This document shows positions 54,219 to 61,785 of a stretch of DNA of 64,000 nucleotides, one piece after another. A program made the translations under genes and the position numbers. This stretch comes from an uncultured euryarchaeote. Lineage in GTDB: Archaea; Thermoplasmatota; Poseidoniia; Poseidoniales; Poseidoniaceae. A model generated the notes under the pieces. It made no database searches and was not told the origin of the DNA. It saw only the letters and a program-made list of their open reading frames with translations. Location: contig CALDNA010000066.1 in assembly GCA_937915175.1 (NCBI GenBank), positions 2,994-66,993 on the forward strand. Direction: 5' to 3'. Position 1 is the first letter of the stretch; every line of letters starts with the position of its first letter.

Positions 54219-54302
54219 TGCAGAGGGCAGGATTCGAACCTGCGAACTCATAGAGACTGGGACCTCATCCCAGCGCCGTTGACCAAGCTTGGCAACCCCT
54301 GC
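54219..54302 (-). tRNA. tRNA-Leu (anticodon GAG), class II with long variable arm; CCA not encoded
   Basis: Folded by hand from the reverse complement GCAGGGGTTGCCAAGCTTGGTCAACGGCGCTGGGATGAGGTCCCAGTCTCTATGAGTTCGCAGGTTCGAATCCTGCCCTCTGCA. The 7-bp acceptor stem has one G-U pair. Anticodon stem CTGGG/CCCAG with loop AT-GAG-GT. T arm GCAGG-TTCGAAT-CCTGC. Confidence 0.85.
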
Positions 54303-54370: not shown

Positions 54371-55042
54371 TCACTCTTCCATGAAAATGGAGATTTCTTC
54401 CAATGGTTTTCGATGAATGTCTGGGACCTTGGCACCCGGTGCTGGATAGCCAACGGGCATAACGAGCATGGCCTCCTCGTGGGGGGGCCGATCGAGTAAA
54501 TCGCCGAGGAACTTCATTGGCGAGGGGGTATGCGTCAACGTGACAAGCCCCATGCGGTGCACGGCGTTGATGAACAAGCCCGCAGCAATACCGCATGATT
54601 CGGTAGCATAGTATGTTGGGCCCCACTCGCCGTTGTCTCGAAGTCGTTTTTTCTGCTTAAACAAAACCACAACCCAAGGTGCATCTGTGAGGTGTTCTTT
54701 TACTGCGTCCGTGCCGAGCGGAGAAAGCACTTCAGCCCACGCTTCCGGCATGCGATGATCGTAGGTGCGCCGTTCTTCTTCTTCCGCAGCACTTCTGATT
54801 TTTTTCTTCAATTCAGCGTTGGAAACAGCGACCCACGTCCATGGTTGTAAGTGAGCGCCGTTTGGGGCGGTACCGCCCGATTGAATGGCCAATTCAATCA
54901 GTTTTCGATCAACCGACTGAGTTGAGAAGTGCCGAGTCGTGCGACGGGTGTTATTTTCTTGATAGGCCAGATTCGCTTGCTCAAGCATGACCTCTTCAGA
55001 TTGCTGTGCCCAATCAAGCGGTATGAAACCGACTTCACCCAT
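54371..55042 (-). CDS. Nitroreductase-superfamily flavoprotein, iodotyrosine deiodinase (IYD)-like
   Basis: RRTTRHFS, GTAPNGAHLQPWTWVAV, AAEEEERRTYDHRM, AVKEHLTDAPWVVVLFKQ, GLVTLTHTP and LLDRPPHEEAMLVMPVGYPAPGAKVPDIHRKPLEEI. These are colinear with my recollection of animal IYD. Confidence 0.75.
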   Translation of the reverse strand: MGEVGFIPLDWAQQSEEVMLEQANLAYQENNTRRTTRHFSTQSVDRKLIELAIQSGGTAPNGAHLQPWTWVAVSNAELKKKIRSAAEEEERRTYDHRMPEAWAEVLSPLGTDAVKEHLTDAPWVVVLFKQKKRLRDNGEWGPTYYATESCGIAAGLFINAVHRMGLVTLTHTPSPMKFLGDLLDRPPHEEAMLVMPVGYPAPGAKVPDIHRKPLEEISIFMEE

Positions 55043-55087: not shown

Positions 55088-57535
55088 TCACTGTGTTGGC
55101 ATTTTCCCACGCATTCGTAACCATGACTCGCTGCCAAACATCAGCGCATACATCGCTGCAAGCCACAACGTAGGACGGCCCCAATCTTCTGCAGTCATCG
55201 TCTCCGGCATCACGCCTTGGCCAAACGCAAGCAGAACACAAAGCCAAACCAACGTCACCCCGTGAAGCCCCCAACGAACGGTGGACATAATCTGGGAAGA
55301 GTTTGCCTTCATTTCAGTGATTTCAACCTCGGTCAAAACAGCCGTGACACCCTTCAGTTTGTCAAGTGCCGTGCCCCCATTCCACCGAATCTGGCCCAAG
55401 CGGAAGCGACTGAGAATTTCGATGCCAGTGAACATGGTCACCCACACCACCACCACTTCGAGGAAGGGTTCAGCCCCCCTCAAATTGAGCGAGCCTTGGC
55501 CAGACCAAAGGAGAAGCCCCCAAAGCCATGAAACCAACACCAGTTGGAACGTTCGAGCGAATTTTGTAATGCGGTGCAGCAGTTCAGCGTCGTGTGAAAG
55601 CAACATTTCCAGAGCGATAATCAACGCTGTCGTACCGGACAAACCGACGCTGATCAACAACCACCACCAGTCTAGATCTCCATCCCTCCATGCAAACATC
55701 AACGCCACCATGGTCCAGGCAAGCGCCACTACCGATGCCAGATTGGCGGCAGCTTGCATTGTGTAGAGCGGATCTCGTCCGTCTCTGAGGACAGCAAAAC
55801 CACCCATCAACCGGGTTTCAAAAGCAGAATCATCGACAAGCCCGTGTGCAGCGGCAGTCATGCCACCAACGGCCTTGATTCGAGCGTTACCAACAATCGA
55901 CTGCGCCTCGCCCTGTGCCCATTGTTCATCCAAACCGTTCGTGTTCCATGAGGAACCACGGCTGGCAGCATGAGCCGCTCCTGCCCCACGGCTTTTGGTG
56001 TTCCCAGCAGAACGCGTTTTCGCCCACGCACGGATATCATCAGAGATGATGTCTTCGACTTGATCTTCGTTCAATGGGGCTCCGTGGTCGGTGTAGAGCC
56101 ATCGGCATTGAATCGGCACAGGGGCGGGATCAACGTCCGGCGCCACCATTTGGAATTGACCCGGTCCAAGCGTTGGCAACTGGGCCACTAAGTCTTGATC
56201 GCCACCACTTTCCTTCAACAAGTGACGAACCTTTTCGACGTCTTGCGGTTGGGTGAACCGTCCAATGAATGTGGTGTTGGCTTGGGCGAGAATTTTGTAA
56301 TCGACATCGCTCACGTTTTGCGTTGCCAGAACGCAAGCAACACCGTACTTCCTCGCCTGCTTGAAGATGAGTTTAATCAAATCCTTGGCGGGGGGATTTC
56401 TTGGGTGCGGCGGCAGGTAAGGCGCCACTTCATCCATGAAAAAGAGCAATTTTAATTCGCCTTCAGCAGGTTGCTGCGTGAGCATCCAATCGTACAACTC
56501 CCGAGACAATTCTTGAACAAAATATTGCTTCTGTGCTTCATCCTGAATGGTGTTAAGGTAGACGATGTTGAGGGGGATTTTTCCTGGGATTGCAGGCTCA
56601 ACAAAGGAATCGATATCGATGGGGACGCCGTTTGAAAACAACAACTGATTGACGCCCGAAGAATAAGCAGAAAGACGCCTTGCCAACTCATTTCGAGTTG
56701 TTTTTGGCAAGCGCTCTTCAAAGTCAGTGAGTCGATGTTCAGCCATCACTTCATCCCAAGGTGGAACCGCAAGTTTTTCTTCCCCCTCCTCAATATCAAG
56801 GAAGCATTCAGGGTAGAGTTTTCGCGTGAATTCTTGGTTTGGCTCTCGCACCACTCGCGCCAACGCTTGGAAATCACTGACGTCCAATCCATGCTTTGTA
56901 CCTTCGACCAGCACTTCATAGAGGAAGGGTTTGACGATCTTCCCTTGCGCTTTTTCAACATCATAGCCGGCTAAACTGGTGAACCCTGCGGCCACCATGT
57001 CCCATGCGGTAATCGCTTCTTCAGCATCGAGGTTTGAAGGCGGTGTTCGAAATGGATCAATGCACAAAGGCAAACCCTTCGAGCGAAGCGGGGTCCAAAT
57101 GCGAACCTCACACATGTCCATGAGTTTCTTTGCCCTCGCCACATCACCACCTTCTGCTTCCAGATCAGCAGGGGCGATACCAAGGGCGAGGCGCGCCAAA
57201 TCGCCCTGTGGATCGATGATTAGCGATGGAATCTTTGCTAACGCCGCTTCTTCGATCAACGCCTTGGCCATGACGGTTTTTCCAGAACCAGTTGAACCAA
57301 GCATGGCGGCGTGGCGTGCAAGGACCATCGGTTTGATGTCAATGGGCTCGCCAGTGTCACGCCTGTTTCCAAGGTACATCCCTTTCGGCTTGTACCTTTT
57401 TTGCTTCGTTTGCTTTTCCACAACAGCCGGGGAAGTTTGTTCATCAGGGGTGAGGATATCATCGACAAGGTCCGCTAAACTCGGCTCATCCGCCGTAGGC
57501 ATCTCCGCGGAGAAAGCCTCGTCGTCCGATACCAT
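55088..57535 (-). CDS. HerA/DUF853-like P-loop ATPase fused to a C-terminal six-helix membrane domain
   Basis: Walker A MLGSTGSGKTVMAKALIEE followed by IIDPQGDLARL. Walker B LLFFMDEVAPYLP. ATQNVSDVDYKILAQANTTFIGRF. The C-terminal 240 aa (nt 55088-55810) hold six hydrophobic helices. The ORF starts at a TTG at 57580; the first ATG is at 57535. Confidence 0.7.
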   Translation of the reverse strand: MVSDDEAFSAEMPTADEPSLADLVDDILTPDEQTSPAVVEKQTKQKRYKPKGMYLGNRRDTGEPIDIKPMVLARHAAMLGSTGSGKTVMAKALIEEAALAKIPSLIIDPQGDLARLALGIAPADLEAEGGDVARAKKLMDMCEVRIWTPLRSKGLPLCIDPFRTPPSNLDAEEAITAWDMVAAGFTSLAGYDVEKAQGKIVKPFLYEVLVEGTKHGLDVSDFQALARVVREPNQEFTRKLYPECFLDIEEGEEKLAVPPWDEVMAEHRLTDFEERLPKTTRNELARRLSAYSSGVNQLLFSNGVPIDIDSFVEPAIPGKIPLNIVYLNTIQDEAQKQYFVQELSRELYDWMLTQQPAEGELKLLFFMDEVAPYLPPHPRNPPAKDLIKLIFKQARKYGVACVLATQNVSDVDYKILAQANTTFIGRFTQPQDVEKVRHLLKESGGDQDLVAQLPTLGPGQFQMVAPDVDPAPVPIQCRWLYTDHGAPLNEDQVEDIISDDIRAWAKTRSAGNTKSRGAGAAHAASRGSSWNTNGLDEQWAQGEAQSIVGNARIKAVGGMTAAAHGLVDDSAFETRLMGGFAVLRDGRDPLYTMQAAANLASVVALAWTMVALMFAWRDGDLDWWWLLISVGLSGTTALIIALEMLLSHDAELLHRITKFARTFQLVLVSWLWGLLLWSGQGSLNLRGAEPFLEVVVVWVTMFTGIEILSRFRLGQIRWNGGTALDKLKGVTAVLTEVEITEMKANSSQIMSTVRWGLHGVTLVWLCVLLAFGQGVMPETMTAEDWGRPTLWLAAMYALMFGSESWLRMRGKMPTQ

Positions 57536-57626
57536 ACCGTGGGGAGGGAAGCAGGGGGTCTTGAAGACCGCGACCGCCAACGGTGTTGAGAAGCAGACTC
57601 AAGGGGGTCGGGCAATTCGCCGTTGT

Positions 57627-59313: not shown

Positions 59314-59466
59314 AACCCGTCTGATGCAGCGATGGTTTATCATTGTCAAGCCAAATGAAACGAACTATGTTTTCACGATCCTCCCAAGAGTTTAGGCCCA
59401 CTGTTGAACAAGGCTGTAAAATCAATATACCAACTCATTGATACCAAGTACGCCCCTAGTGGTGCT

Positions 59467-61785
59467 ATGAAGGCAGAGAAAGTTGTCGCAATTGGCGTTC
59501 TTACATTGATGCTGATGTCCGGATGTTTGGGCGCGGTGGATCCTGCGATTGAAATGCCAACCGTTGAACTTCCTGAAGATTGGAACACAACCGTTGCTCG
59601 TACGACTTCGAGCCCCCAACTGAATCAATTTTCTGATTGCGACGAACTGGAAACAACCCTCAAACTCTCAATCGAGGAAGAGGCTCGAATCCAAATCCTG
59701 CAAGCTATTGAAGAGCAGTATTCCTATGGTGGTTTTTGGATGGAAGACGACATGGCCGTGGCAGAATCGGCGGATGGCGGGTCCGCCCCCACGGCAACAC
59801 CAAGACGGGTCGAAGGCACGGACTTTTCTGGAACCAACAACCAAGAACAAGGGGTCGATGAAGCAGATTTCGTCAAAACAGACGGCTACAATATTTACTT
59901 CCTCAACGGCAAAAACCTCGTTATATTCGGTGTTCCTGAATTTGGCGAACTGACCCTTCTTTCCACCACAGCCATCCAAGGGAATCCGACGGCTATGATG
60001 CTCGACGGCGATCGCTTGGTTGTCATTTCCTCTGTTTCGACCTGGTCGATCAACAACAACGACCCACTTGCTGCCGAACTTGGCTGGGACGACGCGCAGA
60101 ACACATACCGAACCTCATCATTAACCAAATTCTCAGTCCTTGATGTGACAAACCGTTCAGCCCCAACAATGGCCAAAGAACTCTTCTTAGAAGGCAGTTA
60201 CATGACCGCTCGTGAAGTCAACGGCACCGTTCGCACCGTGACCCACGCTTGGATGAACATCCCCGGCCTCCAAACTTGGCTTGACCTCCCAACGGGCTAT
60301 TGGAACCTCGATTACGACGACCCGTTGCGCCTCGAACTTCGTGAGAAAGTTGGCTACCAAACCATCCTTGAGAATCAATTGACGTTGTCAAAACTCGCTC
60401 TTGTTGATATCTTACCAAAGGTGTACGAGCGGGTTGACGGAGCGCTCACAATCCACACCATGGACGAAGATGCATGCGCAGATTTCGCTGCACCAGGAGA
60501 CGGCTTGAACAGAGGCTTCAACAGCATCTTTACCTTTGATTTGAACGACGAGAACTTCGCCTTCCAAGCCGATCACATCGTCGGAAATTACCCCATGGTT
60601 TACGCCTCTGAAGACGTGCTCGTGCTAACGGAGAATGCATGGGACTGGTGGTGGTTCTGGGGCAATGATGACATGGATGAAGCCACAAACATTCACACCT
60701 TTGACATCTCAAACCCAGGCGATACTGTCTATACGGGCTCCGGTCGAGTCAATGGAACAATCCTCAACCAATTTTCAATTTCAGAACATTTGGGCGTTCT
60801 GCGCATCGCAGCGACTTCGGGCCAATGGGCACGGTGGTGGATGGAAAACCCCGAGCCAATGAGCTCGAGCGTTATCGCACTCGAGAGAGGTGTTGATCTA
60901 GAAACCGAACAACAGGTGTTGGTCGAAGTGGGGCGCGTCGACAACATCGCCCCCGAAGAACGAATTTGGAGCGCCCGATTCGATGGCGACCGCTGCTACC
61001 TCGTCACGTTCCGGCAAATCGATCCGCTATGGGTCATCGATATGTCCGATGAAACCAACCCAACCATTCTCGGCGAACTCGAAATTCCAGGCGTCTCGAC
61101 CTACATTCACCCACTCTCTCGCGATCACCTGCTGACCATTGGCATGGGGCCTGGTGAAGACGGACTCGGACTTGATTGGTCAAACACCCGACTTTCGTTG
61201 TTCAACATCAGCGATCCATCCACTCCTGCGGTTGACGATGTCCTTTCGCTTACCCCTGTTGCGGATTCAAACAATTCAGGATGGACGTGGTCCTACTCTG
61301 AGGCATCATATGAGCACAAGGCCTTCCAATACTGGGCGCCTAAGGGGTTGCTTGCCGTGCCTCTTTCAACGTACAAGTATGACAGTTGGTACGACGGAAA
61401 TGGGAGGTACTCTTATTCCTACCAATACGTCAGCAAACTCATGATTGTCAATGTTTCAGAAGAGACTGGAACAATGTCGGTGCACGGGGAAGTCAACCAC
61501 TCAATGTTCTACAATGGCAACGACCGGACATCCTACTATGGAAACTACGACATCCGCCGGTCAATTTTCATGGGCGATTTCATCTATGCTATTTCCGCTC
61601 AGGGCGTGACGGCCACCAACCTCACAACGATGGAATCCACGGCTTCAATCGAACTGACATACGAGGAACAGTGCTACTACTGCGACGAGGAAATTTCGAG
61701 TGACGCCGAAGGCGAAGACCGGCCTTCTTCCGATTCAGATAAACCAGCAGAGAGTGAAACTTCTGAGTCCCCCGATCGGGGTTGA
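59467..61785 (+). CDS. Secreted beta-propeller-domain protein (Beta_propel/PF09826-like), lipobox signal, acidic C-terminal tail
   Basis: GVDEADFVKTDGYNIYFLNG, IHTFDIS, RFDGDRCYLVTFRQIDPLWVIDMSD and GVSTYIHPL. N-terminus VAIGVLTLMLMSGCLGA. ORF 59404..61785 trimmed to an ATG. Confidence 0.7.
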   Translation: MKAEKVVAIGVLTLMLMSGCLGAVDPAIEMPTVELPEDWNTTVARTTSSPQLNQFSDCDELETTLKLSIEEEARIQILQAIEEQYSYGGFWMEDDMAVAESADGGSAPTATPRRVEGTDFSGTNNQEQGVDEADFVKTDGYNIYFLNGKNLVIFGVPEFGELTLLSTTAIQGNPTAMMLDGDRLVVISSVSTWSINNNDPLAAELGWDDAQNTYRTSSLTKFSVLDVTNRSAPTMAKELFLEGSYMTAREVNGTVRTVTHAWMNIPGLQTWLDLPTGYWNLDYDDPLRLELREKVGYQTILENQLTLSKLALVDILPKVYERVDGALTIHTMDEDACADFAAPGDGLNRGFNSIFTFDLNDENFAFQADHIVGNYPMVYASEDVLVLTENAWDWWWFWGNDDMDEATNIHTFDISNPGDTVYTGSGRVNGTILNQFSISEHLGVLRIAATSGQWARWWMENPEPMSSSVIALERGVDLETEQQVLVEVGRVDNIAPEERIWSARFDGDRCYLVTFRQIDPLWVIDMSDETNPTILGELEIPGVSTYIHPLSRDHLLTIGMGPGEDGLGLDWSNTRLSLFNISDPSTPAVDDVLSLTPVADSNNSGWTWSYSEASYEHKAFQYWAPKGLLAVPLSTYKYDSWYDGNGRYSYSYQYVSKLMIVNVSEETGTMSVHGEVNHSMFYNGNDRTSYYGNYDIRRSIFMGDFIYAISAQGVTATNLTTMESTASIELTYEEQCYYCDEEISSDAEGEDRPSSDSDKPAESETSESPDRG

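Follow-up and report, generated by a model that had tools for sequence, protein, structure and literature searches.

What may an archaeal cell do with a HerA-like ATPase that is joined, on one polypeptide chain, to a membrane domain of its own? This question is raised by a gene on the minus strand, at positions 55088-57535, of a 64,000-nucleotide stretch of contig CALDNA010000066.1 (assembly GCA_937915175.1, an uncultured member of the Poseidoniaceae); the whole stretch is referred to below as the window. The 815-amino-acid (aa) product consists of four parts, namely an acidic N-terminus, a HerA-clade ATPase, a Gly/Ala/Ser linker and a six-helix membrane domain. The clade of the ATPase is known; the architecture and the membrane domain are undescribed in the databases and literature searched, and a preliminary description, made from the sequence alone, had likewise not recognised the architecture as a known family. 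Homologues carry only generic names in public databases ('ATP-binding protein', 'DUF853 family protein' or 'hypothetical protein'), and full-text searches of the literature found no description of a HerA-like ATPase combined with a six-helix membrane domain. The gene and its parts are located as follows.

55088..57535, minus strand: whole gene, coding for the 815-aa protein with its HerA-like ATPase and six-helix membrane domain (stop codon TGA at 55088-55090)
57386..57535, minus strand: residues 1-50, acidic disordered N-terminus (predicted local distance difference test score, pLDDT, <50 in AlphaFold)
56006..57385, minus strand: residues ~51-510, HerA-clade RecA-like ATPase core, which has a helical insert but no HAS barrel (profiles, AlphaFold, Foldseek)
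57275..57298, minus strand: Walker A motif GSTGSGKT, residues 80-87 (G80, G83, G85, K86 and T87 invariant)
56429..56452, minus strand: Walker B motif KLLFFMDE, residues 362-369 (D368 and E369 invariant)
56315..56353, minus strand: RKYGVACVLATQN, residues 395-407, RKYG...ATQN (R395, K396, G398, A404 and Q406 invariant)
55811..56005, minus strand: residues 511-575 (~65 aa), Gly/Ala/Ser-rich linker (low confidence in AlphaFold; alignment)
55091..55810, minus strand: residues 576-815, six-helix membrane domain of no known family (hydropathy, AlphaFold, homologue alignment)

The open reading frame extends upstream of the gene as given here (55088-57580, minus strand) and codes for 830 aa when counted from a TTG codon. 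This TTG was rejected as the start, and the ATG at 57535 (minus strand), which yields the 815-aa protein, was preferred, because all orthologues begin with MVS[DE] and conservation upstream of the ATG is confined to the nucleotide level. The N-terminal region of residues 1-50 contains one short conserved helix (LADLVDDIL, residues 20-27) and is absent from the versions found in Marine Group IIb (MGIIb), the sister family of the Poseidoniaceae.

Is the fusion real? The possibility that two separate genes were joined by assembly or frameshift, for which the preliminary description had left room, is practically negligible: the same uninterrupted frame was found in more than 100 independent assemblies, including complete single-contig genomes, and the linker is itself under purifying selection. 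In a survey of 301 Thermoplasmatota genomes, the full-length gene was present, in single copy, uninterrupted and with its synteny kept, in 39 of the 41 sampled Poseidoniaceae genomes, and the fusion is thus genuine. Many independent assemblies labelled Poseidoniales/Poseidoniaceae contain close homologues of full length (810-835 aa, 75-96% identity), and fused versions (690-744 aa) also occur in Marine Group III (MGIII), a second order of the class, and in the MGIIb genera g16, g147 and g14. Matches to a profile of the membrane domain were obtained in 162 Poseidoniaceae, 9 MGIIb and 2 MGIII genomes. The gene is a vertically inherited single-copy core gene of the Poseidoniaceae, present also in MGIII and in some MGIIb. 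Ratios of non-synonymous to synonymous substitution rates (dN/dS), taken from the one pair with unsaturated dS, were 0.019 for the ATPase, 0.046 for the linker and 0.039 for the membrane domain; these values point to strong purifying selection, acting more strictly on the ATPase than on the membrane domain. A mobile-element or viral origin was considered and rejected, as a viral-sequence search gave no phage matches and the plasmid matches were remote and limited to the ATPase.

Three further observations concern the individual copies. In genus g141, open frames of ~300 aa that look like split genes are truncations at contig ends, and the copy in the MGIII genome G333 contains one in-frame TAA. 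Identity to the ATPase of the window is 64-65% for the MGIII orthologues (G333:C5:54359-55723 and G342:C31:4916-6277) and only 37-58% for those of MGIIb, a pattern that suggests either a transfer between MGIII and Marine Group IIa (MGIIa) or a faster evolution of the MGIIb sequences.

To which motors is the ATPase related? It shows the hallmarks of the FtsK-HerA superfamily (whose founding paper is said to be that of Iyer et al. 2004): a Walker A motif, a Walker B motif of the form hhhhDE, an Arg/Lys block and a sensor Gln, together with a fold that matches HerA and VirB4. The motifs GSTGSGKT, IIDPQGD and LLFFMDE and the block RKYG...ATQN, of which ATQN, like the other motifs, had already been pointed out in the preliminary description, lie at residues 80-87, 106-112, 363-369 and 395-407, respectively. 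Invariance was judged over 19 homologues, down to 32% identity; besides the residues listed above, D108, G111 and D112 of IIDPQGD and the pair D412-Y413 are invariant, and the RKYG...ATQ...DY region is the block that best matches solved HerA structures. Given that all nucleotide-binding motifs are invariant over this range, the protein is predicted to be a catalytically intact HerA-clade P-loop ATPase and should be active.

Profile searches place the core in the HerA clade, as the earlier HerA/DUF853-like assignment had it. The Pfam model DUF87/HerA central (PF01935) scored 46.7 bits against a cut-off of 23.2 (residues 64-345) and HerA_C (DUF853) 28.1 bits against 22, the latter over profile positions 7-105 of 502 only, i.e. 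the first fifth of the profile; TrwB_AAD_bind also exceeded its cut-off, over positions 11-55 of 387 only (the P-loop region). FtsK_SpoIIIE (20.1 vs 24) and AAA_10 (25 vs 27.5) remained below theirs. The equivalog cut-offs of NCBIfam (HerA, anti-phage HerA, CedB, CedD, VirB4 and TraD) were all missed by more than one order of magnitude in bits. The core therefore belongs neither to canonical archaeal HerA (helicase_HerA 30.9 vs 970 bits, HerA_Thermprot 30.2 vs 800 bits) nor to the VirB4/VirD4-TrwB ATPases of conjugation (VirB4_CagE 28.7 vs 643 bits). When the 19-homologue profile was compared with the sequences of the Protein Data Bank (PDB), HerA proteins were matched at 6e-20 to 4e-12, EccC5 weakly at 0.0013, and the solved YjgR chain 11kk over the P-loop region only. 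The AlphaFold model of the core (pLDDT 80-90) gave as its best Foldseek matches the hexameric Thermococcus HerA-NurA with double-stranded DNA (dsDNA; 9x1m, 7.5e-14) and the Sulfolobus HerA (4d2i, 3e-12); the defence proteins SIR2-HerA and DUF4297-HerA were among the top matches, and VirB4 was found at 1e-8.

Canonical archaeal HerA has an N-terminal HAS barrel and a partner, NurA, usually encoded in an operon with Mre11-Rad50. The protein described here shares with such HerAs (4d2i, 9x1m) the ATPase clade, the Walker A and B motifs, the RKxG block and the sensor Gln, but it has neither the barrel nor the partner, and bears a six-helix membrane anchor at its C-terminus. No HAS barrel family was found in a Pfam scan at E<=1, and the Walker A motif, at residue 80, directly follows the disordered tail. 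In the position of Walker A near the N-terminus, the lack of a HAS barrel and an above-cut-off match to HerA_C, the protein resembles YjgR/DUF853; however, this match covers the first ~100 of the 502 profile positions, and YjgR is soluble, without a membrane domain.

What lies beyond the linker? The preliminary description had reported a Gly/Ser/Ala-rich linker followed by six hydrophobic helices, and on this point hydropathy, AlphaFold and the positive-inside rule agree. The transmembrane helices (TM) were assigned to the following residues.

TM1, 594-617; TM2, 624-646; TM3, 663-680; TM4, 691-709; TM5, 756-775; TM6, 790-806

Four of these segments passed the Kyte-Doolittle threshold, TM3 and TM6 being weaker yet hydrophobic. 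The AlphaFold helices span residues 589-617, 623-645, 650-679, 689-713, 746-770 and 782-809 in both the full-length and the domain-only models (pLDDT 82.2 and predicted template modelling score, pTM, 0.77 for the latter), and a conserved pre-helix, LMGG..L.D..DPL, precedes TM1. Over 15 homologues, Lys and Arg residues average 14.7 in the segments that follow TM2, TM4 and TM6, all three predicted to be cytoplasmic, vs 1.2 in the three outside loops. Because of the six helices and this strong positive-inside signal, both ends of the domain are predicted to face inwards (N-in/C-in topology), which places the ATPase in the cytoplasm. The linker, which is of low confidence in the model and differs in length among lineages (~45 to ~130 aa), is predicted to be flexible. 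Residues D588, N598, W670, L674 and S746 of the membrane domain are invariant and E643, F702 and R710 nearly so, the conserved polar ones being located at or near the cytoplasmic face and not in the middle of the membrane.

The membrane domain represents a protein family that is both new and specific to this lineage. When 1.84 billion representative proteins were scanned exhaustively with HMMER, 56 relatives were returned, many of them fragments and all apparently from Poseidoniia; most of the full-length ones (672-868 aa) bear the same ATPase. Scans of 15 members against Pfam and NCBIfam gave no family matched by more than 2 of the 15 (best E 0.012), and Foldseek gave nothing significant (best E 0.49 in PDB and 0.31 in BFVD, TM-scores <=0.37). 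The weak top PDB rows of that search, which are membrane domains of ABC exporters (probability <=0.14), were not used for identification, and an assignment to CedA/VirB6-like or other known membrane families was rejected for want of a consistent Pfam/NCBIfam or a significant Foldseek match. The homology to CedA that the preliminary description had suggested looking for was thus not detected. Within the Ced system, CedB and CedD are HerA/VirB4-like ATPases with transmembrane helices of their own that act in DNA transport; their N-terminal transmembrane part is followed by a VirB4-like N-terminal domain, and the channel, CedA/CedE, is separate and works along with Ups pili (PMC11868833). The present protein is similar in being a HerA/VirB4-like ATPase that bears its own transmembrane helices, but its CedB and CedD scores are far below the cut-offs (26.6 vs 700 and 33.2 vs 600 bits) and its membrane domain has no CedA-like match.

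How could the two halves of the protein work together? By analogy, we tentatively favour a membrane-tethered hexameric translocase that would thread a polymer, most likely dsDNA, in the manner of FtsK, SpoIIIE and TraB with reversed topology. The nearest solved structures of the ATPase in the Foldseek search are all polymer-threading rings and, by homology to HerA, the ATPase would assemble into a ring of six subunits and use ATP to thread a polymer, probably dsDNA. Given the linker and the predicted topology, this ring would be flexibly tethered on the inner side of the membrane; the membrane domain would hold it at the cell membrane and may also have a function of its own there. Candidate tasks are the clearing or segregation of chromosomal DNA at division, or the movement of DNA across the membrane.

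FtsK/SpoIIIE and the Streptomyces TraB belong to the same superfamily and likewise carry on one polypeptide a ring motor that is connected by a long flexible linker to a polytopic membrane module. The membrane module of FtsK has a role independent of the motor, to which the stand-alone membrane domains described below offer a parallel. In the present protein, in contrast to FtsK/SpoIIIE, the order is reversed (the membrane domain is C-terminal), there are six helices instead of four, the sequence is unrelated, the FtsK_SpoIIIE score is below the cut-off and no gamma/winged helix-turn-helix (wHTH) domain was matched.

In a stronger version of this proposal, six copies of the protein, with 36 membrane helices, would form or gate a conduit under the HerA ring and so make up a one-gene translocon for DNA or another polymer, functionally equivalent to FtsK/SpoIIIE/TraB and invented by archaea, for chromosome clearance at division or cell-to-cell DNA transfer in archaea that rank among the commonest of the surface ocean; we regard this as rather doubtful. 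The compact translocase imagined in the preliminary description has to be modified: the fusion stands, but the linker is flexible and variable in length, and the membrane domain occurs alone in lineages without the ATPase.

Several points weigh against the tethered DNA translocase. The predicted flexibility of the linker argues against a rigid motor-on-channel translocon, and the polar residues grouped close to the cytoplasmic side could form a site for docking or catalysis no less readily than a channel. The Pfam scan of the protein found no DNA-recognition domain (FtsK gamma or wHTH). The data would fit DNA, protein or another polymer alike; relatives of the EccC type move proteins. The ATPase is dispensable in the sister family, since most MGIIb genomes in the survey are without any such ATPase, and this argues against a universally essential role in segregation. 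Transcription is supported weakly, by short metatranscriptome contigs ~99% identical to parts of the gene, which may stem from contaminating DNA.

The question of substrate leads to a different motor, i.e. a membrane-bound protein translocase or extractor similar to the type VII proteins EccC/EssC instead of a DNA pump. The FtsK-HerA superfamily has protein-moving members, EccC5 was matched weakly in the PDB sequences, and the lack of a DNA-binding accessory domain would suit such a task. We nevertheless consider it very unlikely: the closest relatives by sequence and fold are DNA-acting HerAs and not EccC, and no lineage has conserved neighbouring genes for substrates or secretion.

Does the membrane domain depend on the motor? 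Stand-alone versions, 257-449 aa long and in some cases bearing a poly-acidic N-terminus, were found in the MGIIb genera g146 (four genomes), g13 and g12, in whose genomes no trace of the ATPase was detected anywhere; P0129 and P0167 are further examples. Because these copies persist in genomes without the ATPase, the membrane domain would have a role of its own that does not require the motor. The closest relatives of the ATPase outside Poseidoniia (40-48% identity) come from other Thermoplasmatota and have no membrane segments. Two examples of each kind are given below.

L035, 6376-7149, minus strand: stand-alone membrane domain, 257 aa, MGIIb
L022, 5469-6818, plus strand: stand-alone membrane domain, 449 aa, with a poly-acidic N-terminus of ~180 aa, MGIIb
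L018, 8003-10486, minus strand: relative of the ATPase with three C-terminal zinc ribbons and an N-terminal extension of ~280 aa
L015, 7271-9412, plus strand: relative of the ATPase with an unrecognised soluble C-terminal domain of ~190 aa, located just after a gene for a MoxR-type AAA ATPase

As the C-terminal modules differ among these relatives, the ATPase is a portable module and its fusion to a membrane domain a Poseidoniia innovation. Both observations, the stand-alone domains and the portable ATPase, would also suit a view in which the membrane domain is the primary unit (a channel, membrane enzyme or scaffold specific to Poseidoniia) and the ATPase an accessory regulator or energiser, acquired by fusion, that threads no polymer. 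The purifying selection on the membrane domain itself and its polar residues near the cytoplasmic face (D588, N598, E643, R710 and S746) point the same way. However, most full-length representatives bear the ATPase; none of its catalytic residues has been lost, selection constrains it more strongly than the membrane domain, and its nearest solved structures all thread polymers. On balance, this view is unlikely, though the main rival of the tethered translocase, and the two are partly compatible, not mutually exclusive.

The modularity of these relatives bears on yet another alternative, an antiviral abortive-infection protein in which a HerA-like ring would sense foreign DNA and trigger the fused membrane domain to damage the membrane. 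The swappable C-terminal modules recall the modularity of defence proteins, and the strongest matches outside Pfam are to defence HerA models (PADLOC HerA 2.8e-21 and mad8 7.9e-19, NCBIfam anti-phage HerA 3.3e-11). By these matches and by fold, with SIR2-HerA and DUF4297-HerA among the top Foldseek hits, the core resembles SIR2-HerA, DUF4297-HerA and Mad8, the last of which forms with Mad7 the ATPase-nuclease module of the MADS system (PMC13662399). Yet all curated cut-offs for defence HerA are widely missed (42.6 vs 850 bits), the gene has no effector partner, lies in no defence island and has no adjacent defence genes, and it is a single-copy core gene kept in housekeeping synteny in 39 of 41 Poseidoniaceae genomes, with dN/dS of ~0.02-0.04, no phage matches and plasmid matches that are remote and ATPase-only. 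Moreover, a gene for a pore-forming effector would hardly be retained on its own without regulation. A defence role is, in our view, quite unlikely. The list of functions offered in the preliminary description (translocation of DNA or protein, membrane remodelling or defence) can thus only be narrowed: the architecture behind it is real, and its defence item is disfavoured.

What do the surroundings of the gene add? It is the sole DUF87 match in the 2.04-Mb genome. A search of 21 Poseidoniales genomes gave NurA (PF09376) in none, with control genomes responding, and no true FtsK was detected, the one FtsK_SpoIIIE signal obtained when eight genomes of the genus were scanned being that of this gene, below the cut-off. 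The neighbouring genes are of housekeeping type (nitroreductase, tRNA, DegT, CYTH, beta-propeller protein and GFO/Idh/MocA oxidoreductase); as already remarked in the preliminary description, none of them encodes NurA, Mre11/Rad50, a pilin, VirB or a conjugation protein, and no type IV secretion, defence or effector genes are among them either. The neighbouring features are listed below.

54219-54302, minus strand: tRNA gene, 84 nt (Rfam, 44.3 bits)
54371-55042, minus strand: nitroreductase-family gene, same strand, 45 bp downstream of the ATPase-membrane domain gene (Pfam, 3.4e-18)
57536..57626, no strand: divergent spacer of 91 bp shared with DegT, containing two words conserved across Poseidoniaceae genera
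59404-61785, plus strand: secreted beta-propeller protein, 793 aa (Pfam Beta_propel, 1.3e-116)

The order GFO/Idh/MocA - beta-propeller - CYTH - DegT, with DegT divergent from the gene studied here, is kept across the Poseidoniaceae genera examined, and the beta-propeller gene with CYTH and GFO/Idh/MocA constitutes a block syntenic across the family. In one genus DegT is missing from this place and CYTH adjoins the ATPase-membrane domain gene. Outside the Poseidoniaceae the upstream neighbour is a bPH_2 membrane protein (MGIIb) or an unrelated 840-aa protein (MGIII). A functional tie to DegT and GFO/Idh/MocA (glycan export) was consequently rejected, the pairing being confined to the Poseidoniaceae. 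Comparison of the neighbourhoods revealed no partner gene common to MGIIa, MGIIb and MGIII, so that the gene is the orphan it had been taken for. An operon link with the nitroreductase is unlikely, because the two genes are adjacent in some Poseidoniaceae genomes and kilobases apart in others. One metatranscriptome contig matches the window up to position 54302 and continues with 153 nt of unlike sequence; it probably represents the same tRNA in a different genomic context.

The spacer between the gene and DegT (57536-57626) is, as noted before, GC-rich and divergent. It contains the palindrome GGTCTTGAAGACC at 57557-57569 (22-34 nt upstream of the ATG of the gene) and GCAGACTCAAGGGGGTCG at 57593-57610, within which ACTCAAGG lies 24-31 nt upstream of the DegT ATG. 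These conserved words are probably local promoter words, which would explain why no TATA-like element is seen in the spacer. YTCAAR-like words followed by a G/C run occur upstream of several other genes of the window, TCAAG being found in 5 of 42 upstream regions vs a background of 4.3%.

What could the protein mean for the biology of these archaea? Marine Group II ranks among the most numerous archaeal groups of the surface oceans; its members are uncultured, and their cell biology is known from genomes only. In the genome analysed here, the protein is the sole motor of the DNA-pumping type detected from the FtsK/HerA family, and the sampled relatives are without NurA and true FtsK. The membrane domain, which would work without a motor in some lineages, may be a structural and functional target in its own right. 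If DNA is moved at the membrane by this protein, it would show how chromosome clearing or DNA exchange can proceed without FtsK or HerA-NurA, and it would represent a third independently evolved membrane tethering of such a motor, with reversed topology and a new membrane domain.

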